Of a stretch of DNA of 64,000 nt, positions 350 to 61,865 are shown one piece after another. How positions within the stretch are numbered: the stretch's first letter is position 1; the number at the start of each line of letters is the position of its first letter. Under the pieces are notes generated by a model that saw nothing but the letters and a program-made list of their open reading frames with translations, was not told the DNA's origin and searched no databases. The DNA lies in contig CAZVBM010000002.1 of NCBI GenBank assembly GCA_964625885.1, forward strand, positions 7,537 through 71,536, in the 5' to 3' direction. A program made the translations under genes and the position numbers. This DNA is from an uncultured Candidatus Saccharibacteria bacterium (GTDB taxonomy: Bacteria; Patescibacteriota; Saccharimonadia; Saccharimonadales; Saccharimonadaceae).

Positions 350-3166
350 TTACTTCTTAAAGTATTGTTTCAAATATTGCCCAGTGTATGACTCGCCAAC
401 CCGACTAACATGTTCAGGCGTGCCGGTCGCAACGATTTCGCCGCCACCTTCACCACCTTCTGGGCCAAGATCAATAATCCAATCGGCTGATTTAATTACT
501 TCCAAGTTGTGCTCAATTACCACCACCGTGTTGCCTTCGTCAACTAATTTTTGAATAATATCAAGCAATCGCGCCACGTCGTCAATATGAAGTCCCGTGG
601 TTGGCTCATCAAGGATATAAAGTGTTTTACCAGTAGAGCGACGCGACAGTTCGGTGGCTAACTTAACTCGCTGCGCTTCACCGCCAGAAAGTGTCGTGGC
701 CGATTGACCGAGACCAATATAGCCTAGGCCGACTTCAACCATGGTGTCTAGCTTGCGTTTTAGATTTGGCAGGTTCTTAAAGAATTCAGCCGCTTCTTCA
801 ATCGTCATATCAAGCACATCGCTAATCGACTTACCTTTGTATTTAATCTCTAGAACTTCTTTGTTATAACGCCGACCATGACACTCGTCACAAGTCACGT
901 AAACATCTGGCAAAAAGTGCATCTCGATCTTTTTGACACCGTCGCCCTGACAAGCCTCACAGCGACCGCCTTTGACATTAAAACTAAAACGACCAGCTTT
1001 ATAACCACGTAAGTTGGCTTCGGGTAGCGACGCGAACAGATCGCGAATTTGCGTAAATAAGCCCGTATAAGTTGCTGGATTAGAACGCGGCGTACGCCCA
1101 ATCGCCGACTGATCAATCACGATGACTTTATCAATCTTTTCTAAGCCCTCAACACCATTGTGCTTGCCAGCGATTTCTTTGGCTCGATAAAACCGCGCCA
1201 TCAATTCACGCGCTAATATTTGATTAACCAGGGTAGATTTACCAGAGCCCGACACGCCAGTCACGCAAGTCAAAACGCCAATTGGGAAGCTAACATCAAT
1301 CTTTTTTAGATTGTGCTCACTAGCGCCTAAGACTGTGATCGCCTGATCTTTCTTAACCGCGCGGCGCTTCGCCGGCAAAGCGATTTTCTTTTTGCCACCC
1401 ATGTATTGCCCAGTGATGCTAGCTGGATTTTGCATCACCTCTTCGGGCGTACCAGCCGCGACGATTTCACCACCATGTTTACCAGCACCTGGACCAACAT
1501 CAATCAGATAATCGGCCTGACGAATCGTATCTTCGTCGTGCTCCACGACCAAAACTGTATTACCTAAGTCACGTAAATGTCTAAGCGTATCAAGTAGACG
1601 ATTATTATCACGCTGATGCAAACCGATTGATGGTTCGTCTAAAACATAAAGCACACCTTGTAAGCCAGAGCCAATTTGTGTTGCCAGACGGATGCGCTGT
1701 GATTCACCACCAGAGAGCGTATTAGCCGCTCGCCCAAGCGCCAAATAATTCAAACCAACATCGTGCAAGAAATCCAAGCGCGCCATAATTTCTTTGATAA
1801 TTGGCCGAGCGATTAGCATTTTTTCGTCCGACAATTTGATATGGGCAAAATACTCCACCGCTCGATCCACTGGTAAATCACTGACGTCCATAATACTTTT
1901 ATCAGCCACCGTGACCGCCAAAACTTCTGGCTTGAGTCGGCGACCTTTGCAAGCGTGGCAAGGAATTTCGCGCATAAAACGCTCGATATCTTTGCGAATA
2001 AATTCGGAGTCAGTTTCACGATGACGTCGCTCCAAGTTAGGGATCACCCCTTCGAAAATCGTGTCAAACGACCGGCCATTGCCAGCCTCCACGCTATAAG
2101 TATGGTCGCCAGTGCCATATAAAATTAACTGAACTTGATCTTTGGATAGTTTCTTAATCGGCACGCGCAAACTAAAGCCGTTCGCCTCAGCCACCACACT
2201 CAGGCGTTTGAGATACCAACTCTCATAACCAAGGCGATTATATGGCCGGATGCCACCCTCAGCAATAGTTAGGTTTGGATTTAAAACTAAACTTGAATCA
2301 ATCTCCTGACGAATACCCAGTCCAGTACAAACTGGACAAGCACCTAATGGCGCATTGAAACTAAACAAACGCGGTTCGAGTTCAGGAATGTTAACTTCTG
2401 GATGGACTGGACAGGCGTAGCGCAAGGAATAGTCAACGATTTCTTCCGTGTCAGCATCCAGAATTTCCACCACTTCGTTGCCGTGCTGTAAGGCTTGCTC
2501 AACCGAGTTGGTCAAACGCGCGCTCAAATCTGGACTCACTACCAAACGATCAACCACCAGCTCGATAGTATGTTTGTAGCTCTTTTGTAATTCAGGAAAT
2601 TCGTCCAAGTCATAAATCACACCATTAACCCGCACCCGGGCGTAGCCTTGCTTGGCATACTCGGCCGGAACATGCGCAAACTCACCCTTTTTTGCCTTAA
2701 CCAGTGGCGCCAAAATAATAATTCGCTTGCCCATAAAAGTCGCAGTGATTTCATCGATAATTGATTGCTCAGTTTGGCGCGAGACCTCACGGCCACAAAT
2801 CGGACAGTGCGGTACACCAACGCGAGCAAACAAGAGGCGCATATAGTCATAAATCTCGGTCACGGTTGCTACGGTTGAACGCGGATTGCGCGAAGCGGTT
2901 TTTTGATCAATTGAAATCGCTGGCGACAGGCCGGTAATCATATCAACGTCGGGTTTGTCCATGATGCCTAAGAATTGCCGCGCATAGCTAGACAAGCTCT
3001 CAACATAACGACGCTGGCCCTCGGCGTAAATCGTATCAAACGCCAAGGTTGATTTACCCGAACCAGACAAGCCAGTAATCACCACCAGCTTATCACGCGG
3101 AATCTTTAGATCGATATTTTTCAAATTGTGCTGACGCGCACCTTTTATCTCAATATAATCTTGCAT
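350..3166 (-). CDS. uvrA: Excinuclease ABC subunit A (UvrA)
   Basis: 938 aa with two ABC ATPase modules ([20 protein letters not shown]; LSGGE signatures) and CxxC zinc-finger pairs. The length and N-terminus [18 protein letters not shown] are typical of UvrA. Confidence 0.97.
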
Positions 3167-32265: not shown

Positions 32266-32410
32266 ATCCCACCGGGAAGGTTCGTTCGCTTTGCTTCCGA
32301 ACGCTCCGCCCGAACGCCAGATTAGTTTTGCTAACGCAAAACATCTGGGTTCGGTCCTGATGCGAAGCATCAAAAAAGAATACCCCAGCCGTTGGCTGAG
32401 GTATTCTTTT
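32266..32410 (-). repeat. tRNA-Glu-matched trailer unit: terminator-like hairpin, T-arm-derived palindrome and a 13-nt copy of the tRNA 3' part
   Basis: atcccaccgggaa at 32266-32278 repeats 32416-32428 inside the tRNA. ccgaacgccagat (32310-32322) and atctgggttcgg (32343-32354) form a hairpin made of tRNA-Glu T-arm sequence around gttttgctaacgcaaaac. Confidence 0.7.
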
Positions 32411-38839: not shown

Positions 38840-38880
38840 CTTTTGGCTTTTGCGCTAAAAAGTGGTAAAATAACTCTAAT

Positions 38881-38957
38881 GCACCCGTAGCTCAGCGGAT
38901 TAGAGTACTTGGCTTCGAACCAAGGGGCCGCAGGTTCGAGTCCTGCCGGGTGCACCA
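38881..38957 (+). tRNA. tRNA-Arg (anticodon UCG), CCA encoded
   Basis: Hand-folded: acceptor GCACCCG/CGGGTGC, anticodon loop CTTCGAA, T-arm GCAGG-TTCGAGT-CCTGC. Confidence 0.9.
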
Positions 38958-39335
38958 TCCTCCGTCGCTATCCGTTGGATAGCTATGGAGGATTTTTTGT
39001 ACATCTAGGTAGGGCGAGAACCTGACTCGCCAGTTGGCGGGAGGTTCGGCGTAGCGCAGCGAAGCGAAAAAGTGTTTACATTTTTTCGCAAGCAAGCGAA
39101 GGAGCGAGCAAAGCGAGCGATGTCCTGCCGGGTGCACCATTAAAAAATAGCTACATTGTGGCCATTTTTTAATGGTCTATACCCAGACAGATTTGATTCT
39201 GCGGCGCGGCAGATTTAGCTGACGCAAGCCGCAGGTTCGGCGGAGGCGAAATGAGAAAAGAAAGCACTGTAGGTATTTTCTTTTCGAATGAGCCAGAGGA
39301 GGCAAAGCCGATGTCCTGCCACGCACCCATCACCC
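38958..39335 (+). repeat. Two tandem tRNA-Arg-matched units, each ending in a copy of the tRNA 3' part
   Basis: gtcctgccgggtgcacca (38940-38957) is repeated exactly at 39122-39139 and degenerately at 39313-39329. T-stem 5' copies lie at 39038-39049 (diverged) and 39228-39240 (12/13). Confidence 0.85.
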
Positions 39336-39385
39336 CTTGAATAAAACCCCAAAAAAGTGTAGAATAATCAGGCAAGAGAAGCTTA

Positions 39386-46019: not shown

Positions 46020-46339
46020 CAGAAACACCTCGTGTAAACGAGGTGTTAATTTTAGTGAGACATCGCTCACCGCGTTCGCTCCTCCGCTCCGAAAGGGTCG
46101 AAAGCAAGCTTTCGCGTTTCTTTCGTCGCTACGCCGAACTCACGACTTGTTTTGCTAGTGAGACATCGCTCATCCGCCAATTGGCGGATTCACTCCTCCG
46201 CTTGCTTGCGAAAAAATGTAAACACTTTTTCGCTTCACTGCGCTACGCCGAACTCATTTTTGCTACGCAAAAATCTGAGTTCTCGTCTCAGCCAAAATCA
46301 AAATCCTCCATAGCAATTCAAAAGGATTGCGACGGAGGA
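46020..46339 (-). repeat. Two tandem tRNA-Lys-matched units downstream of tRNA-Lys
   Basis: tagtgagacatcgctca occurs twice (46053-46069 and 46156-46172). cgaactcacgac at 46135-46146 equals 46359-46370 inside the tRNA. The 61-nt block at 46193-46253 is the reverse complement of 39044-39104 (59/61). Confidence 0.85.
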
Positions 46340-46416
46340 TGGTGGATCTGGTGAGACTCGAACTCACGACACCCTGCTTAAGAGGCAGGTGCTCTAACCG
46401 GCTGAGCTACAGATCC
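46340..46416 (-). tRNA. tRNA-Lys (anticodon CUU), CCA encoded
   Basis: Hand-folded from the reverse complement: GGATCTG acceptor, anticodon loop CTCTTAA, T-arm GTGAG-TTCGAGT-CTCAC. Confidence 0.9.
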
Positions 46417-46497
46417 GAACGTCATTATTTTACACTTTTTTACAGATTTTACAAGAGAATAAGAAAAATCCCTGCCTGTACGGCAGAGATTTTGTTA

Positions 46498-47315: not shown

Positions 47316-47568
47316 AGACCGCATTTGAGGCTTTAGTCTCAAATAAGGTATGCTCGGCGTAGAAGAGAAGCGAACTCTTCGATAATTTCGCGGTCAGCGA
47401 AATTACATGTTGAGCCCAAGAAAACCAGCAACCTAAAAAATAGTTTTCATGGCGCGAGACTATATTCTCGCCACCCGCACCAAATCGTATTTGAGATTTT
47501 AATCTCAAATGCGAGTTGGCTCAGCATGGAAGAGAAGCGAACTCTTCGTTCTCGCCACCAACATCGTA
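47316..47568 (+). repeat. Two tandem tRNA-Gly-matched units between tRNA-Gly and tRNA-Arg(UCU)
   Basis: attctcgccacccgcacca (47297-47315) is repeated at 47463-47481. A degenerate third copy, ttctcgccacc, lies at 47548-47558. Both units start with an atttgag...ctcaaat hairpin and share gaagagaagcgaactcttcg. Confidence 0.85.
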
Positions 47569-47645
47569 TGCCTCGGTAGCTCAGCTGGATAGAGCAGGAG
47601 ACTTCTAAGCTCAAGGTCATAGGTTCGACTCCTATCCGAGGCGCC
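47569..47645 (+). tRNA. tRNA-Arg (anticodon UCU), CCA encoded
   Basis: Hand-folded: acceptor GCCTCGG/CCGAGGC, anticodon loop CTTCTAA (the anticodon stem has mismatches), T-arm ATAGG-TTCGACT-CCTAT. Terminator tcgcc-acacaa-ggcga with a T-run follows. Confidence 0.85.
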
Positions 47646-47676: not shown

Positions 47677-49203
47677 TTAATAAATCGTTTCAATATTTGC
47701 ACCAAGGGAGTTGAGGCGGCGAGCAAAGTCTTCATAACCCCGATTGATTGAGTAGACATTGCGCAAAATCGACTCGCCTTCGGCCGCCAACATCGCTAGC
47801 ATCAACACTACCGCTGGCCTTAGGGCTGGTGGCGTGACAATTTCTGCTGGCTTGAAGTTAGTTGGTCCAGTGATAATAATGCGGTGCGGATCAATTAGTT
47901 GAGTCGAGACATTTAATTTACTCAGCTCAGCCAAGTAAATCGCCCGGTTCTCGTACACCCAGTCATGAATCATCGTTGGCCCCTCCGCCACCGCCGCAAT
48001 CACCGCAAAAAAGGGCAGGTTATCGATGTTTAAGCCCGGATATGGCATCGGGTGAATTTTATCAACTGAGCAGGTCAACTTGCTCGGCTTTATTGTTATA
48101 TCAACCAGCTTAGTACGCTCATTGCGCGAGAAATAAACATCAGAAACTTTTAAGTTCGCCCCCATGCCCCGCAAAGTTTCGATTTCAACTTCGAGAAAAT
48201 CGATTGGCGCACGCTTAACGGTAATCTCCGAATTGGTTACCAGGCCAGCAGCGATGAAGCTCATAGCTTCAATCGGGTCTTCGCTAATTTCATAACTAAC
48301 GTTTTTATTAATATCGGCAAGACCCTGAACTCTTAGAAGCGTCGTACCGATCCCTTCAATGCGCACCCCTAATTTTTCTAGGAAGAAGCAGACGTCTTGC
48401 ACCATATAGTTCGGACTAGCGTTGTGAATTTCAGTCACGCCACTATGCAAGGCTGCCGCCATCAAGACGTTTTCTGTTACGGTATCACCTCGCTCCACCA
48501 AGACAATCTTGACTGGCTTTTTAGGGTCAACCGCTGAAACTTCAGCTTTATAAAACCCGCCAGCAGTATTGACGCTTAGGCCAAATGATTCTAAGGCCTT
48601 AAGATGCGGCTCAACCGTACGTGCCCCAAGATTACAGCCACCAGCGTACGGTAGCTTGAAGCGCTTATTTTTGTGAAGCAAGACCCCCATTAGCATAATC
48701 ACGCTACGGGTCATACGAGCCGACTCGAGGTTAATTTGGTTAGTATCAAAGCTAACTGGTGGAATTATTTCTAAATCACGATGATTGTTAAGCCAACGAA
48801 CTTTGACGCCCAAACTCTCAATCACTTCAATGATGCGATAAACTTCTTCAATGTTAGCGACGTGCCTGAGCACAGTCTTGCCACGGTTAAGTAACGAAGC
48901 GCAAAGTAGCGCTACAGCCGCGTTTTTTGAGGTATTAATGTTAATTGAGCCGCTTAGTTTCTTGCCACCATTGATACGAAAATGGATCACTCCCTTTTGG
49001 CCAAACGTCAACAGCCCCACTTTTAAAACCTCGCTGATCCTTTCGATCATCTCGAGACTAATGTTTTGTTTACCTTTCTCAATGCGGTTAATCGCACTCT
49101 GGGAAGTACCAACTTTGACCGCCAAATCAGCCTGTGTCATGTTTTTTTGCAAACGCGCGCGCTGAATCAAGTCCCCCACTAAACGTTTATAATTCTTTAC
49201 CAT
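47677..49203 (-). CDS. murA: XRE-type HTH domain fused to UDP-N-acetylglucosamine 1-carboxyvinyltransferase (MurA)
   Basis: The N-terminal 65 aa (LIQRARLQKNMTQADLAVKVGTSQSAINRIEKGKQNISLEMIERISEVL) form a classic HTH_3. The rest is a MurA/EPSP-fold protein (SKNAAVALLCASLL; GGCNLGARTVEPH with the catalytic Cys). Confidence 0.85.
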   Translation of the reverse strand: MVKNYKRLVGDLIQRARLQKNMTQADLAVKVGTSQSAINRIEKGKQNISLEMIERISEVLKVGLLTFGQKGVIHFRINGGKKLSGSININTSKNAAVALLCASLLNRGKTVLRHVANIEEVYRIIEVIESLGVKVRWLNNHRDLEIIPPVSFDTNQINLESARMTRSVIMLMGVLLHKNKRFKLPYAGGCNLGARTVEPHLKALESFGLSVNTAGGFYKAEVSAVDPKKPVKIVLVERGDTVTENVLMAAALHSGVTEIHNASPNYMVQDVCFFLEKLGVRIEGIGTTLLRVQGLADINKNVSYEISEDPIEAMSFIAAGLVTNSEITVKRAPIDFLEVEIETLRGMGANLKVSDVYFSRNERTKLVDITIKPSKLTCSVDKIHPMPYPGLNIDNLPFFAVIAAVAEGPTMIHDWVYENRAIYLAELSKLNVSTQLIDPHRIIITGPTNFKPAEIVTPPALRPAVVLMLAMLAAEGESILRNVYSINRGYEDFARRLNSLGANIETIY

Positions 49204-54835: not shown

Positions 54836-55030
54836 AATAAAATTAGTCACCTTCATGGTGGCTGATTTTATTTGACCACGGAATGGTGAGTTGAACTTGC
54901 GACGTTTTGCGCCAGCAAAACAAGTCGCAAGTCGTGAAGTGAGTGAAGCGAGTGAAAAGCAGGCCGAAGGCTTGTTTTTCCGAGCGAACGAGCGGAAGAG
55001 CGAGTAATACGAGCGATAATCTTGTCCCAA
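54836..55030 (+). repeat. tRNA-Pro(UGG)-matched trailer unit
   Basis: Elements in order: a terminator-like hairpin at 54836-54876; ttgaacttgcgac (54891-54903), the inverse of the tRNA T-arm 5' side; the inner hairpin gttttgcgccagcaaaac; a direct copy gtcgcaagt (54924-32); a central hairpin GAAAAGC..G.TTTTTC (54954-80); and a 3' copy aatcttgtc (55018-26). Confidence 0.8.
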
Positions 55031-56589: not shown

Positions 56590-56665
56590 CGGGATGTGGC
56601 GCAGTTGGTAGCGCGCACGGCTGGGGGCCGTGAGGTCGCCTGTTCAAGTCAGGTCATCCCGACCA
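56590..56665 (+). tRNA. tRNA-Pro (anticodon GGG), CCA encoded
   Basis: Hand-folded: acceptor CGGGATG/CATCCCG, anticodon loop CTGGGGG, T-arm GCCTG-TTCAAGT-CAGGT. Confidence 0.88.
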
Positions 56666-56747
56666 TCCTCCTTCGCTGTCTTCTGGACAGCTACGGAGGA
56701 TGCAGTCCGTAGCCTTTGGCGAAGGAGTGCATTTTATCAACACGCAT

Positions 56748-56824
56748 CGGGGCGTGGCGCAGCTTGGTAGCGCGCACCGTTCGGGACGGTGAGGTCGCCT
56801 GTTCAAATCAGGTCGCCCCGACCA
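56748..56824 (+). tRNA. tRNA-Pro (anticodon CGG), CCA encoded
   Basis: Hand-folded: acceptor CGGGGCG/CGCCCCG, anticodon loop TTCGGGA, T-arm GCCTG-TTCAAAT-CAGGT. Confidence 0.9.
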
Positions 56825-57282
56825 TAAAAATTGACTCACCTTTTGGTGGGTCAATTTTTATCTGTTGCGCGCAACATGTTTGACTGGCGACCTTTTGCGT
56901 AGCAAAAATTGGTCGCCTGTCGTGGAGTGAACGAAGCGAAGAAAAGCGCGTAGCATTTTTCTGAGCGAGTGAACGGAGGAGCGAAACGAAGTGGAGCGAT
57001 AATCAGGCCTGATACTATCGTAATATTGGTGGCTGATTTTATTTGGCCACGGAGTGGTGAGTTGAACAGGCGTGCCTGTTCGCGAATGAACTCAGCCTAC
57101 ATACGATCATGTGACCGGTTTAATAATTACTTTGAAGGGAATCTCGCAGTTACGACGGAGAGCTTAGCGCAGACGGCCCTGTAACGACAGGCGCCGTCAA
57201 GTGTCCCTGAAAAGTAATTATTAAATATCAGGTCGTATTAGAAATAGACAAGCAGGGTGGACGAAGCCCATAATCAGGCCCT
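56825..57282 (+). repeat. Three tandem tRNA-Pro(CGG)-matched units. The middle one carries the type-2 structured insert.
   Basis: Partial T-loop/T-stem 3' copies lie at 57001-57009 (aatcaggcc), 57225-57235 (atatcaggtcg) and 57270-57281 (ataatcaggccc). T-stem 5' copies are ggtcgcctgt (56911-20) and gcctgttcg (57074-82). Confidence 0.8.
57117..57235 (+). ncRNA. Candidate structured element (type-2 insert), copy 1. Strand and RNA status unproven.
   Basis: A 21-bp closing helix (ttaataattactttgaaggga / tccctgaaaagtaattattaa, with 2 mismatches) encloses a core that is about 85% identical to 61247-61310. Confidence 0.5.
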
Positions 57283-58756
57283 AAAACAACTTCTCACCGT
57301 AAATTTCATTTTCTAACTCATCATGATCATGACACCAAACCTGCGCAATAAACTGACTTTTCTTAGCTAATTTATCATTGTTCCACGGTGGCAAGAAACA
57401 TTCCGGACACCAATGCCCAGTTTTTAAGACTAAATACGGACTGGCCTCAAATTCGTGACCTTCGGAACAAACCCATTTCAATTTAGTTTGCAAATCGCCC
57501 TTTTTCATTTTATTAGACAAACAGTCGCCACCACGAAACTGAGCGGCTCGCTTCATATCAGCCAAATCTAACTGGTCTAACGGTTTTGTTTCATCATAAC
57601 CATGGTCTAATTTTGAATGCGCTTCATCGTGCACTAAACTAAAACCATCCCAGCCACCAGGAATCGCCTGCCATTTTTCAACCGAGCCAAAGAAAGCCTT
57701 AAATTTAGCCACTTCACCATGTTTTAGCCAATAGAGTGGCGCATTGGGCCGGTTGGCACGCGGTAACATAAAGAATCGCTTTACCAAACTAGCTGGGATA
57801 TATTTCAGTAATTTTAATTTGAGCGGTAGATCTCGTTTAATCTCTGCCAAAACATCATCAACCGTTTCGGTTCGAAAGTCTAAATAATTATTTAAATCAT
57901 CGGAATCCAAATACCACATGCCATGAAAATTACGCAGCGCATACCAATTTGGCTGTTCTAATGATTTAAGATCCACCCCTAACATACGATAAAACTTGTC
58001 TAAAAATTCAAAGGCCGTCAAGCGATTGGCCGCGCCACCACCAATATTATAGACTCGGCTCCAGAATCCACTAGGTAGCTCTTTGGTGCAGAGATTGTAT
58101 AGCAGCCGACCAGAATCACGCGCCGTAATCCACTCCAAGCTATTGTTGAGTGGCTGATGATAACTAATACCATCGTCCACCGCAAAAATATCTTTGTGTA
58201 TAATGCCCGTCTGACGGAGCGACACCCACTGCTTTATACCAGATTCAATCACATAACGTTCAGCTGCCACTTTGGAAATGGAATAATAGTCAAAAGCACT
58301 CGGTAGTAGTGGATCGCCGACTCGCCCCCAGTGGACTGGAATTGGCCGATTGCCATACTGACCAATACTACCAATGTAAACAAATTTAGTTGTTTCACCC
58401 TGCCCAAGTTCTATCACCGCATCGACTAAGTTTTTTGTGCCACCAAAATTAATTCGCCAGGCTAGTTTTGGACGCGTATCGGCCATCGGCGAGACCAACG
58501 CCGCAATATGCAAAACAATATCTATCCCAGATACAGCCTTTTTAACATCGTCATAATTGGTTAAATCACCCCAAACAATTTTAATATCTAGATTATCTTG
58601 ATAGGGCGCCAAGACCTTCTTGTCTGACTCACTTGGCAAAGAGAATATTACCAAATCAAATTGGTCAGTCTTTTCAGCCAATTGACGCAAAGCCTCACGC
58701 CCCATATTGCCAGTCGCGCCGGTTAAAAGAACCTTGGTTTTTTTAGCTTGACTCAT
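57281..58756 (-). CDS. NAD-dependent epimerase/dehydratase (extended SDR) with a C-terminal Cys-rich, zinc-ribbon-like domain
   Basis: Rossmann motif LLTGATGNMG and catalytic YSISK (YxxxK). C-terminal WVCSEGHEFE...GHWCPEC. Confidence 0.75.
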   Translation of the reverse strand: MSQAKKTKVLLTGATGNMGREALRQLAEKTDQFDLVIFSLPSESDKKVLAPYQDNLDIKIVWGDLTNYDDVKKAVSGIDIVLHIAALVSPMADTRPKLAWRINFGGTKNLVDAVIELGQGETTKFVYIGSIGQYGNRPIPVHWGRVGDPLLPSAFDYYSISKVAAERYVIESGIKQWVSLRQTGIIHKDIFAVDDGISYHQPLNNSLEWITARDSGRLLYNLCTKELPSGFWSRVYNIGGGAANRLTAFEFLDKFYRMLGVDLKSLEQPNWYALRNFHGMWYLDSDDLNNYLDFRTETVDDVLAEIKRDLPLKLKLLKYIPASLVKRFFMLPRANRPNAPLYWLKHGEVAKFKAFFGSVEKWQAIPGGWDGFSLVHDEAHSKLDHGYDETKPLDQLDLADMKRAAQFRGGDCLSNKMKKGDLQTKLKWVCSEGHEFEASPYLVLKTGHWCPECFLPPWNNDKLAKKSQFIAQVWCHDHDELENEIYGEKLF

Positions 58757-59533: not shown

Positions 59534-61045
59534 TTATTTGGCGTATTCTTCGGCGCGAGTTTCGCGCACGACATTAACCTTAATCACACCCGGATATTGC
59601 ATAGTGCTTTCGATTTTTATAGCAATATCGCGCGCCAATTTAATAGCTGACAAATCATCGACTTTTTCCGGTTTAACAATCACACGTAGCTCGCGACCGG
59701 CTGAGATCGCATAAGACTTCTCAACACCAGGAAAGGCGTTGGCAACATTTTCCAAGTCGCGCATGCGCTCCACAAAGTTTTCACTTGAAATGTTGCGTGC
59801 GCCTGGCCGAGCGGCTGAAACCGCATCAACTACACGTACCACCAGAGCTTCTGTTGTAGTAGCTTCGATATCCTCGTGGTGCGCTTCCATGGCGTGCGCT
59901 ATCTCTTTTGACATGCCATATTTACGAGCTAATTCAGCGCCAATTACATGGTGCTTGCCTTCAATCTTATGCGTCACCGCCTTGCCAATATCGTGGAATA
60001 GGGCGGCTGTCTTGGTGATTTTGACATCAGCACCAATTTCCTCAGCAATTTGCCCGGCTAATTGGGCCATTTCAATTGAGTGCTTCAAAACGTTTTGGCC
60101 ATAAGACGTACGATATTTTAATTCACCGAGCAGGTGCAGCATCTCGCGCGGCATGCCAATCAATCCAACCTCACGCGCTGCGTCTTCACCAGCCCTCACA
60201 ATTTCTTTATCAATTTCTTTTTCAGCTTTAACAACTACTTCTTCAATGCGAGAGGGGTTAATGCGCCCATCTTTCATCAAGAGCTCAAGCGCTAGACGAG
60301 CTACTTGGCGACGCACTGGATCAAACGAGCTCAACACTACCATGCCAGGGGTTTCGTCGATTAAAATGTCAACACCGGTGGCGCGTTGCAAGGTCTGGAT
60401 GTTTCGCCCCTCCTTACCAATAATTCGCCCTTTCATTTCATCATCCGGCAACTCTACTGACGTTACTGTGTGTTCAGAAGTGACTTCTGAGCTCATGCGC
60501 TCCATAGCGCCTAATAAAATCATCTGAGCACTCTCTTCGGCCGCCTCAGTCGCTTCGTTCTTTAATTTACTAATCAAACCAGTCAAGTCGTCTTTGACGT
60601 TCTTTTCAGTCATGTCAAGCAGCTTTTGACGTGCCTCGTCCTTAGTCAATTTAGCAATTTTCTCCAATTTTTCTTCTTGCTTTTGGCGAATATCTAAAAC
60701 CGCATTCTTTAGATCTTCCAACTCTTGTGTCTGTTGGCGCAAAGAATCCATCTTTTCATCGGCCTGCTCGTTCTTTTTATCAAGTAGAGCCTCACGCTCA
60801 GTTAGGCGACTTTCGACGCGGTCCAGTTCTTTGCGACGACTAGCCTCATCACGCTTAGCCTGTTCTAAAACCTTATCGGCGTTACTTTGAGCTTCTTTGG
60901 CTAATTTGCGCGCCTTATCTTCGGCTTCTTTTACTAAATCGTCAGCCTTTTGCTGGTGTTTTTTCGCCTTGGTCGTCAAGACACCATAAGCCGCGCCACC
61001 ACCAATAGCTAGGCCAGCTAGCGAGGCAATCACTATTTCTATCAT
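59534..61045 (-). CDS. rny: Ribonuclease Y
   Basis: N-terminal TM, long coiled coil, KH domain (IGKEGRNIQ) and HD domain (LFHDIGKA). Confidence 0.95.
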   Translation of the reverse strand: MIEIVIASLAGLAIGGGAAYGVLTTKAKKHQQKADDLVKEAEDKARKLAKEAQSNADKVLEQAKRDEASRRKELDRVESRLTEREALLDKKNEQADEKMDSLRQQTQELEDLKNAVLDIRQKQEEKLEKIAKLTKDEARQKLLDMTEKNVKDDLTGLISKLKNEATEAAEESAQMILLGAMERMSSEVTSEHTVTSVELPDDEMKGRIIGKEGRNIQTLQRATGVDILIDETPGMVVLSSFDPVRRQVARLALELLMKDGRINPSRIEEVVVKAEKEIDKEIVRAGEDAAREVGLIGMPREMLHLLGELKYRTSYGQNVLKHSIEMAQLAGQIAEEIGADVKITKTAALFHDIGKAVTHKIEGKHHVIGAELARKYGMSKEIAHAMEAHHEDIEATTTEALVVRVVDAVSAARPGARNISSENFVERMRDLENVANAFPGVEKSYAISAGRELRVIVKPEKVDDLSAIKLARDIAIKIESTMQYPGVIKVNVVRETRAEEYAK

Positions 61046-61220
61046 AAAACCCTTTCATCTGGGCGATCGTTTTCATCGCCTGTAAAAATATTCTTAAATC
61101 CGCGTCTTCGTCAAAAAATGGTCACTAAACGCTAATTAGATTGTAGCACAAAGCCATTTAGCGCGCGACTAATTATTAAAACCGACAACTAGTTTGCGTC
61201 ATTGTCCTTTATTCCGTACG

Positions 61221-61335
61221 GCCAGTTCAACAACTCACCAGCAGACAATCTCGCAGTTACGACGAGAGTTTAGCGCGAGCAGCCCTGTGACGACAGGCGC
61301 TGCCGACGCGTGTCTGATGGGGAGTTGTTGAACAT
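61221..61335 (+). ncRNA. Candidate structured element (type-2 insert), copy 2, embedded in an orphan tRNA-Pro-like T-arm. Strand unproven.
   Basis: ggccagttcaa | insert | catcaggcc. The closing helix gttcaacaactcaccagcagac / gtctgatggggagttgttgaac is unrelated in sequence to that of copy 1, while the core is conserved. Confidence 0.5.
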
Positions 61336-61490
61336 CAGGCCGTGGGTTAGCCTGGATTGGGGCTTTCAACCGACCAGCTCTCCAGAGACGTTTGACCACG
61401 CCCGTCGTTACGGGGTGGTCTGCACTTCGCTGTCGGTCGTAACCGCCAGAGCCTCTGTCGAGCTGGTTGGTTTACGCCCACTAGGTGACA

Positions 61491-61865
61491 CTATTTACGT
61501 GGTTGGGTGATTACCGCGTCCTGATAATAAATCGGCGTGATTACTTGTGGTGTTGCCTGCTTTTTCAGCAACTCATCACCATCAGCGCGCCAATTTTCGC
61601 CACCGGAACCAACAATTGGAATTTGCAAGCTATCAGCCAAAGTATTCGCCACCGTAATACCGATGCGAAGTGATGTATAGCTACCAGGCCCACGAAACAC
61701 CACAATACCATCAAGATCTGACCACCCCCTACCCTCGCCCCCTAACGACTGTTGTAAAAATTGCAACATATTTTTAGAAAGCTCACGACCAAACTGTTGC
61801 TCGAATAATTTATCGTCGAGCCACAAGCGACACCAGTCATCGGCGGTTTGTAGATATAATTTCAC
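61491..61865 (-). CDS. tsaB: tRNA t6A biosynthesis protein TsaB, N-terminal-domain-only short form
   Basis: GPGSYTSLRIGITVANTLA motif. 124 aa, versus roughly 230 aa for the usual protein (from memory). Overlaps the tsaE stop. Confidence 0.75.
   Translation of the reverse strand: MKLYLQTADDWCRLWLDDKLFEQQFGRELSKNMLQFLQQSLGGEGRGWSDLDGIVVFRGPGSYTSLRIGITVANTLADSLQIPIVGSGGENWRADGDELLKKQATPQVITPIYYQDAVITQPRK

Follow-up and report, generated by a model that had tools for sequence, protein, structure and literature searches.

Non-coding repeat modules set in split T-arm copies behind tRNA genes of a Candidatus Saccharibacteria bacterium

In a 64,000-nucleotide (nt) stretch of contig CAZVBM010000002.1 from an uncultured Candidatus Saccharibacteria bacterium (hereafter the window), six of the nine tRNA genes are followed by units that hold a small non-coding module, and every such module interrupts, in the T-loop, a partial copy of the 3′ end of the very tRNA that precedes it. 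These modules form a large, conserved and unannotated family with this one stereotyped location in a split T-arm copy. An original prediction, made from the letters of the window alone, had pointed to a 61-nt block that recurs almost unchanged in the trailers of tRNA-Arg and tRNA-Lys. This block is the core of one subfamily, which we call the GA-type body: about 73 to 85 nt long, purine rich, hairpin bearing and without an open reading frame (ORF). Comparison of sequences shows that the tRNA-specific surroundings of the body, its frame, are inherited with each locus and that bodies are exchanged across the frames of different tRNAs and recombine. As to what the units are, we consider it an even call that they are an ORF-less repeat module that spreads and is homogenised among pseudo-T-arm sites through recombination or template switching.

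The two copies of the block lie at positions 39044-39104 on the plus strand and 46193-46253 on the minus strand, and direct comparison of the first with the reverse complement of the second confirms that 59 of 61 positions are the same. The mismatches are at block position 17 (C in the Arg copy, T in the Lys copy) and position 56 (A and G, respectively). ARAGORN places an intact tRNA-Arg(TCG) with encoded CCA at 38881-38957 (+) and an intact tRNA-Lys(CTT), also with encoded CCA, at 46340-46416 (-); each block is found about 87 nt 3′ of its tRNA and on the tRNA strand, in the common orientation that had been predicted. Chance likeness is excluded, since GTTCGGCGTAGCG has three exact matches in the window, all inside the Arg and Lys trailers, a count reached by none of 100 shuffles, and since blastn aligns the Arg block with the Lys block at E ~1e-22. 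The block does contain a hairpin; it had been described as a perfect one of 8 bp but is in fact 11 bp long (GCGAAAAAGTG-TTTA-CATTTTTTCGC) with one G.T pair. The block makes up the 5′ two-thirds of the body, and the identity breaks off inside it. After ...GGAG, the Arg copy goes on to CGAGCAAAGC and the Lys copy to TGAATCCGCCAATTGGCGGAT, and both finish with the common end GAGCGATGTC. The two bodies have their first 61 nt and last 10 nt in common and differ in the module between, so that their 3′ thirds diverge; that of the Lys body contains an extra hairpin, ATCCGCCAATTGGCGGAT. As the original prediction had recognised, the flanks match each tRNA's own T-arm, GGAGG-TTCG...GT-CCTGCCGGGTGCACCA around the Arg body and ATGAG-TTCG...GT-CTCAC around the Lys body.

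What had been missed is the nested architecture that holds the block, with its antisense tRNA copy, apex hairpin and split pseudo-T-arm, and the presence of such a unit behind most tRNAs of the window. Within the body, the central hairpin CGAAAAAGTGTTTACATTTTTTCG is followed by a GGAGGAG box and a small hairpin of changing sequence, and the body ends in CGAT. The body is preceded by a copy of the T-stem 5′ strand with (T)TCG and followed by N59N60 and the T-stem 3′ strand, optionally with the acceptor strand and CCA. On the 5′ side of the split pseudo-T-arm come a terminator-like palindrome, an antisense copy of the tRNA 3′ end in register with it, and a variable apex hairpin. In the window, partial T-arm copies of a given tRNA are found in its own trailer only.

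The Arg and Lys trailers each hold two units with different bodies. Directly after the CCA of tRNA-Arg(TCG), from which the flanks of both Arg units derive, stands a terminator-like hairpin (TCCTCCGTCGC...GGAGGATTTTTT; 38958-38998, +). Arg unit 1, on the same strand, opens with CGAGAACCT, which is antisense to the 5′ half of the T-arm, and the apex hairpin CTCGCCAGTTGGCGGG (39012-39041, read from the sequence). The sense copy of the T-stem 5′ strand with TTCG (39040-39048) leads into the 73-nt GA-type body (39049-39121; central hairpin 39064-39089; nhmmer E=1e-20). In its 3′ flank, GT-CCTGCCGGGTGCACCA, the last 18 nt reproduce the tRNA-Arg 3′ end exactly, from N59 to CCA (39122-39139), and a second hairpin occupies 39137-39175. 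Arg unit 2 (39195-39329, +) comprises an antisense and apex segment (39195-39227), a T-stem 5′ copy with TTCG (39228-39239), a body of another subtype (39240-39312) and a degenerate 3′ copy (39313-39329). The Lys trailer follows the same plan on the minus strand. A terminator-like hairpin directly after the tRNA (46300-46339) is followed by the antisense T-arm copy, in which CGAGAACTC is antisense to the T-arm 5′ half, and the apex hairpin ATTTTTGCGTAGCAAAAAT (46256-46293). Lys unit 1 (46154-46260) has a T-stem 5′ copy with TTCG (46249-46260), a GA-type body of 84 nt that overlaps the block (46165-46248; nhmmer E=6e-20) and the T-stem 3′ copy GT-CTCAC (46154-46164). Lys unit 2 (46050-46146) has its 5′ copy with TTCG at 46135-46146, a body of a third subtype at 46062-46134 (nhmmer E=7.5e-4) and its 3′ copy at 46050-46061; this body is 82% identical to one behind tRNA-Phe in L021, a Saccharimonadales metagenome-assembled genome. 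A profile of 36 bodies, run with nhmmer, found five clear and two weak bodies in the window, all in tRNA trailers and all in the orientation of the tRNA. The same layout recurs in the window behind tRNA-Glu, tRNA-Gly, tRNA-Pro(TGG) and tRNA-Pro(CGG).

When metagenomes were scanned for the 23-nt hairpin CGAAAAAGTGYTTRCATTTTTTC, at least 120 loci beyond the window were found. Among the first 80 of these, the hairpin starts 93 to 123 nt after the 3′ end of a same-strand tRNA in 55. With the window and its relatives counted in, 22 isoacceptor types serve as host tRNAs, and copies of the own tRNA's T-arm, both antisense and sense, are present at all 49 non-redundant loci. The order of parts is constant. 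After the tRNA come an A/T-clamped palindromic hairpin, a partly degenerate antisense copy of the tRNA 3′ end and a variable apex hairpin; then the sense T-stem 5′ strand with (T)TCG and the body; and finally the last two or three T-loop nucleotides and the T-stem 3′ strand, often with the acceptor strand and CCA and often with a second hairpin. The consensus of the body reads G-Y-G-N-A-G-Y-G-A..GAA-R, the central hairpin, Y-GA..GA-R-C-GGAGGAG, a variable small hairpin and CGAT. At 22 of the 49 loci the antisense copy opens with TGG, so that the palindrome runs in register into the pairing with CCA, where a back-of-envelope estimate expects about one. Body families unrelated to the GA type fill the same T-loop position; one of them, which we call M-type, is found behind tRNA-Ile, tRNA-Met and tRNA-Gln. 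Behind tRNA-Ile, the tRNA 3′ half is repeated over 41 nt without interruption at locus L066, and in L087 such a copy carries a 106-nt M-type insert in its T-loop.

The 23-nt hairpin has no match in 2.9 million viral contigs, where all three patterns tried were negative. In genome contigs, the pattern GTTCGGCGTAGCG N40-70 AGCGATGT gave 29 matches, one of them a true relative (L021); the other 28 were called chance from organism names alone, mostly high-G+C taxa, in a collection that apparently lacks the genome of the window. Protein matches agree with this relative: the UvrD-like helicase of the window is 86% identical to one named Candidatus Nanosyncoccaceae, and other matches bear the names Candidatus Saccharibacteria or Saccharimonadales, which places the window in Saccharimonadia (Patescibacteria). 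L021 also holds, at 460-510 (-), a second copy truncated to the first 36 nt of the body, TTCGGCGTAGCGAGCAAAGGAAGCGAGAGCTTGCTC, which lies about 50 nt 3′ of the complete unit and is without T-arm flanks. At the gathering threshold, Rfam 15, whose families take in riboswitches, the T-box, self-cleaving ribozymes and group I and II introns, reports only tRNA and rRNA in the window and 13 related loci, and permissive E-value scans of both trailers and of a long body gave sub-threshold matches that we judged to be chance; the block is thus not part of a family known to Rfam, whereas membership in a known RNA family was what the original prediction had named as one way to undo it. Literature searches found no description of such elements, with a coverage that is incomplete and leaves novelty unproven.

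Comparison with relatives showed that bodies and frames have separate histories. Orthologous loci were retrieved through homologues and exact look-up; a metagenome scan anchored on thymidylate kinase returned nothing. Many of the Logan contigs of the same species (L031, L032 and L034-L039) stop about 127 nt past the thymidylate kinase gene, inside tRNA-Lys; tRNA k-mers in common or the repeat units may be the cause. The more distant L040 is syntenic with the window, with the same genes and tRNAs and a thymidylate kinase that is 55% identical. At its Lys locus, the frame of antisense segment, apex hairpin and T-stem 5′ copy is the same as in the window at 44 of 45 positions, and the body is only 62% identical. 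Instead, the body of L040 Lys unit 1 belongs to the subfamily of window Arg unit 2, with 89% identity, and the second L040 Lys unit contains a long insert of about 270 nt in place of the 73-nt body of the window. The Arg locus has two short-body units in the window and one long-body unit in L040, and tRNA-Pro(TGG) has one unit in the window and at least three in L040. In the spacer between tRNA-Gly and tRNA-Arg(TCT) (window 47317-47569, L040 9587-9835), where a terminator-like hairpin follows each tRNA-Gly 3′ end copy, two terminator modules stand in opposite order. Between the window and syntenic L040 and L041, orthologous sites are therefore polymorphic in content, with exchanged bodies, unequal numbers of units and a different order of modules.

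Bodies are also mosaic. That of L040 Pro unit 1 is 95% identical to the window Pro(TGG) body over its first 58 nt and 96% identical to the window Pro(CGG) body over its last 28 nt, and the Arg/Lys pair of the window is a mosaic of the same kind. Over 34 variable positions that flank the hairpin in 68 non-redundant copies, bodies behind the same isoacceptor are 67% identical and those behind different isoacceptors 64%; the nearest neighbour of a copy has the same isoacceptor in 12 of 68 cases. How alike two bodies are thus hardly depends on which tRNA they follow. The window Arg and Lys copies are mutual nearest neighbours (32/34), followed by L084, a copy behind tRNA-Ser(GCT) in another metagenome (31/34). 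These results agree with the predicted explanation of the high identity, namely copying between non-homologous loci, strong constraint, or both.

We propose that bodies are copied at the DNA level between pseudo-T-arm sites. Candidate routes would be gene conversion and template switching at the short T-loop junctions that the sites share (GGTTCG... and ...CGAT-NN), as well as a trans-acting enzyme, and selection would purge inserts in working tRNA genes. The 59/61 identity would then mark a tract, from the T-loop junction to the GGAG box, over which the Arg and Lys units recently underwent conversion within the genome; their body lineage is itself strongly conserved across genomes. The frames may, more speculatively, grow outward from the terminator and apex palindromes by intrastrand template switching. 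The in-register run of the terminator palindrome into the antisense tRNA copy suggests this step, which leans on established knowledge of quasipalindrome mutagenesis.

Several observations weigh against a spreading module. Clear terminal inverted repeats and target duplications are absent, and the junctions are ambiguous by 1 to 3 nt, because the body ends (TCG and CGA) repeat T-loop sequence. No partner enzyme was identified in the window: a Pfam scan of 39 of its larger predicted genes gave housekeeping functions or no match, with no integrase, transposase or reverse transcriptase among them. The orientation is strictly that of the tRNA, though a T-arm target is nearly palindromic as DNA. 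A second strain, 99.7% identical to the window, shows no presence/absence difference, with 61 substitutions and 0 indels over 20.6 kb; 6 of the 61 substitutions fall in trailers, which is the average density. Very recent movement is thus excluded between these strains, and variation of the kind that the original prediction had named as a signature of mobility appears only at the distance of L040 and L041, in bodies and unit numbers. High identity alone is no proof of recent copying either, since the tRNA-Ser copy of L084, from a different metagenome, matches the Lys block at 58 of 61 positions. Units also stand between tRNA-Ala and tRNA-Ile within 16S-23S spacers (L066, L087 and L109), where they must be transcribed.

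The structure of the body adds to these points. In an alignment of 36 bodies, where the central hairpin was fixed by the search pattern, three further base pairs covary (columns 27-53, 17-61 and 18-60), with a score reached by none of 500 shuffles. One pair extends the hairpin (A-U 19, G-C 9, G-U 5). The other two join the upstream AG-CG/AG-TG with the downstream GA-GC-GG/GA-AC-GG, one with C-G 21 and U-A 11 and the other with G-C 28, A-U 4 and G-U 4. The small 3′ hairpin and the apex hairpin vary in sequence and are kept as hairpins, and in two helices the differences between Lys unit 2 and the L021 body are compensatory. Unpaired purine-rich positions are strongly conserved. In 64 of 66 bodies the tRNA-sense strand gives the better fold of the two strands, and it has 232 G.U pairs against 101, one G.T pair being invariant; this asymmetry is partly an effect of composition, the tRNA-sense strand being G rich. 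Covariation, retained variable hairpins, compensatory changes and strand asymmetry together indicate that local hairpins are constrained on the tRNA-sense strand, as RNA or as single-stranded DNA. Fixed orientation, covariation, conserved purines, strand asymmetry and the rRNA-spacer copies are explained by a functional RNA no less well than by a selfish element.

Such an RNA, encoded in cis and structured, in tRNA 3′ trailers and rRNA spacers, is the next explanation to weigh; we regard it as possible, if rather unlikely. It could act as a processing or decay signal, in read-through control, or as a riboswitch- or T-box-like sensor in which the closing helix, a T-stem copy, competes with the antisense 3′-end copy that lies upstream. 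Near identity of copies would come from purifying selection and concerted evolution. Besides the points above, the layout is aptamer-like, with conserved purine-rich internal loops, variable-sequence hairpins and a variable closing stem, and the units are pervasive in a streamlined genome. Yet most loci have their units beyond a terminator-like hairpin and its T-run, and visual inspection of the units revealed no promoter like the local ones (TGnTAAAAT type), so their transcription outside rRNA operons is only putative. Moreover, orthologous loci freely swap unrelated body families and shift in copy number, distal copies decay (Arg unit 2, Glu and Gly), and no Rfam family corresponds. Thermodynamic support for a global fold is weak, with modest free-energy z-scores of -0.9 (Arg unit) and -2.6 (Lys unit). 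The repeat module and the functional RNA are not mutually exclusive; mobile structured RNAs exist, so mobility and RNA function can coexist.

Other readings of the body were tried and rejected. A small ORF, with GGAGG followed by ATG, was dismissed by eye: the ATG depends on a T-loop that finishes with GT, and the spacing is not constant. A promoter at AAAAAGTGTTTACAT, compared with the tRNA promoters AAAAAGTGTAAAAT, has a -10-like part without the key positions on either strand. Hammerhead and kink-turn motifs do not fit the purine-rich loops in order or spacing, and Rfam is negative for them as well. The tRNA promoters of the window (e.g. 38858-38875, 46425-46445 and 39355-39372) consist of an A-tract and an extended -10 element, AAAAAGTG-TAAAAT-AA, and the 5′ arm of the body hairpin, AAAAAGTGT, reproduces the first nine bases of this promoter motif.

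Serial integration by tRNA-targeting elements could also leave tRNA 3′ ends behind a gene, each new 3′ end arriving with its terminator and pushing the old one downstream, with the body as a remnant of the element or as a very small element of about 200 bp. The order of tRNA, hairpin, unit, 3′-end copy (often an exact copy of the last 18 or 19 nt) and second hairpin would fit attL and attR, and distal copies are more degenerate. In L040 an extra unit lies between tRNA-Pro and the terminator-like sequence that directly follows the tRNA in the window. Genuine serine-recombinase islands of 5 to 6 kb, moreover, part a unit from its tRNA-Asp in L099 and L105. Against this, an att scar should be contiguous rather than a T-arm split by a conserved 75-nt body behind 22 tRNAs, three tRNA-specific segments would be needed for each copy, and frames stay while bodies change. 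The hairpin is also missing from the viral contigs, and the window has no integrase gene. We therefore find integration scars improbable as an account of the units; the islands of L099 and L105 are ordinary tRNA-targeting islands and a separate phenomenon. At their starts are ORFs of about 530 amino acids (L099 144-1730 and L105 858-2456) that look by eye, from N-terminal motifs, like large serine recombinases; the L105 ORF overlaps the tRNA at its 3′ end. Both islands have a displaced 3′ fragment, a terminator and a GA-type unit on their far side.

Even less credible is that the bodies are T-loop introns of working tRNA genes, or that tRNA-like genes start at the block. The original prediction had likened the start of the block, GGCGTAGCGCAG, to a tRNA acceptor and D-arm, and GCGTAGCGCAG does resemble positions 5-15 of many tRNAs. 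The likeness does not hold up: the family consensus is GGCGTAGCGA(T/A)TGAA with no conserved D-arm pairing, the CGCAG part is restricted to a sub-variant, and neither ARAGORN nor the Rfam tRNA model (RF00005) scores the block. The apex hairpin and the antisense segment, with no tRNA 5′ half, lie upstream of the T-stem 5′ copy. Removing the body in silico restored a tRNA in none of 86 cases, so the interrupted copies are dead fragments and not intron-containing genes. The closest conceptual analogue is found in the non-canonical introns of Thermoproteales. The work of Fujishima et al. 2010, in the summary given by PMC4033280, describes similar short sequences at non-canonical positions in many diverse tRNA species, which points to spread between loci. 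These introns interrupt working tRNA genes and are cut out by the archaeal splicing endonuclease at a bulge-helix-bulge (PMC4033280), whereas the units sit in a bacterium, interrupt fragments that do not function and imply no splicing. A simple segmental duplication of two copies 7 kb apart and nothing more, or chance low-complexity likeness, is next to inconceivable, given that the flanks match different tRNAs, that at least 120 loci exist elsewhere and that the shuffle controls rule out chance.

Our preferred repeat module resembles several known systems in part. REP/BIME and other dispersed hairpin repeats or MITEs of bacteria, such as ERIC, RUP and Correia elements, are short, ORF-less, multi-copy, extragenic and hairpin forming, often found after genes over terminators; they are mosaic and homogenised within genomes and have no adjacent transposase. 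The window units have all these traits in common with them, and the GTAG found 5′ of REP hairpins is also present in most GA-type bodies, where a G(T/C/A)AG stands about 10 nt 5′ of the central hairpin. In contrast to these repeats, the only site of the units is the T-loop of the preceding tRNA's partial 3′ copy, with tRNA-specific flanks in both orientations. The strictly fixed orientation differs as well. In place of terminal inverted repeats there is only an end symmetry of 3 to 5 nt, TCG(G)...(C)CGA, with no consistent covariation, and the body junctions are compatible with a duplication of the T-loop CG or a loss of 1 to 4 loop nucleotides. The 64-kb window holds no RAYT-type (Y1 HUH transposase) or other partner gene.

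Like attL/attR direct repeats, the units are partial tRNA 3′ copies located 3′ of the intact gene, with the newest apparently next to the tRNA, and real serine-recombinase islands use the same tRNAs. Tycheposon-type arrays reportedly consist of tandem tRNA 3′-end att remnants. The copy in a unit, by contrast, is split in its T-loop by the conserved 75-nt module and has an inverted copy before it, and the DNA between repeats is about 200 nt and non-coding. In the E. coli tyrT trailer, a single locus, tandem 178-bp repeats contain the last 19 nt of tRNA-Tyr; there too a tRNA 3′ stretch is repeated in its own trailer, but with no T-loop insert, antisense copy or dispersed family. Integron attC sites have the layout R''/L''-L'/R' with cores RYYYAAC...GTTRRRY and are used by the IntI integrase; the antisense/sense T-arm hairpin of the units, ..TTCGAAC..apex..GTTCGGC, is core-like and does not fit GTTRRRY. 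As for intrinsic terminators, reading of the sequence shows the hairpin nearest each tRNA to be G+C rich, with a T-run and directly behind the gene. The block, about 87 nt downstream, has an A/T-rich hairpin with no T-run after it.

Dispersed non-coding repeat modules of this kind, tied to tRNA genes, are apparently a feature of Saccharimonadia genomes that has not been described. Genomes of Saccharibacteria and of the candidate phyla radiation (CPR) are very small, yet most tRNAs of the window bear about 100 to 400 nt of nested repeats, and the core sequence is almost invariant over many environments. If the units are mobile, insertion in the T-loop of dead tRNA-end copies would be an unusual safe-harbour strategy, and the enzyme or replication error that recognises T-arm hairpins would be worth finding. 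If they are functional RNA, they would make up an abundant, lineage-wide and unannotated class tied to the handling of tRNA and rRNA transcripts in hosts whose RNA processing is poorly known. It is doubtful that the units are something categorically new, either a structured element that homes to T-loops or a tRNA-specific trailer switch. The former, if true, would give bacteria an equivalent of the archaeal tRNA introns that transpose, with decoy copies of tRNA 3′ halves as the only places where it is tolerated; in the latter, a closing helix made of the T-stem copy would toggle against the antisense 3′-end copy, so that each tRNA would supply the sequence of its own switch. Under both, a dedicated process would have to make sense and antisense copies of a tRNA 3′ end beside its gene. 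In practice, the units explain tRNA-fragment calls in these genomes and provide a lineage marker.

The remaining units of the window are as follows. Behind tRNA-Pro(TGG), the unit at 54890-55028 (+) has an antisense and apex segment (54890-54921), a T-stem 5′ copy (54922-54932), a GA-type body (54933-55017; nhmmer E=1.8e-4) and a T-stem 3′ copy (55018-55028). Two units follow tRNA-Pro(CGG): unit 1 (56882-57012, +), with antisense and apex segment, 5′ copy, GA-type body (56921-57000; nhmmer E=2e-7) and 3′ copy, and unit 2 (57061-57283, +), a split pseudo-T-arm filled with an unrelated "long" body of 189 nt (57083-57271). The tRNA-Glu unit (32266-32353, -) has an antisense segment with the apex hairpin GTTTTGCGTTAGCAAAAC, both T-stem copies and a short, degenerate body that the profile finds only weakly (32279-32310; nhmmer E=0.14). 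The spacer between tRNA-Gly and tRNA-Arg(TCT), on the plus strand, contains two further tRNA-Gly 3′ end copies with short hairpin modules, one of which, at 47464-47482 (+), is exact over 19 nt. The swapped order of terminator modules in this spacer could be produced by excision through one repeat pair and re-insertion through another. The adjacent genes for tRNA-Pro GGG and CGG (56590-56665 and 56748-56824) are ARAGORN calls that the gathering-threshold Rfam run, which lists seven of the nine tRNAs, does not include.

Trailers of Arg-TCG (38958-38968), Lys-CTT (46329-46339, -) and Pro-GGG (56666-56676) open with TCCTCC(G/T)TCGC right after the CCA, and their hairpins close with GGAGGA. The resulting ACCA-TCCTCC is anti-Shine-Dalgarno-like, and the GGAGGAG box of the bodies is complementary to it. 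Between the RNase Y gene (59534-61045) and tsaB (61491-61865), the region 61200-61490 contains two structured-looking modules closed by stems: module A at about 61222-61345, with closing stem GTTCAACAACTC/GAGTTGTTGAAC, and module B at about 61365-61470, with closing stem AACCGACCAGCTC/GAGCTGGTTGGTT. Paralogous pieces occur within split pseudo-T-loops, at window 57083-57271 and in the Arg and Lys trailers of L040, and the closing stems of the copies differ wholly in sequence with the pairing kept. Rfam gave no match for the modules in this region, and ARAGORN called no transfer-messenger RNA there. Finally, the minus-strand gene at 47677-49203 encodes a 508-amino-acid fusion of an N-terminal Cro/C1-type helix-turn-helix with a full EPSP-synthase/MurA-fold domain, and the fusion is kept in L040 and L041.

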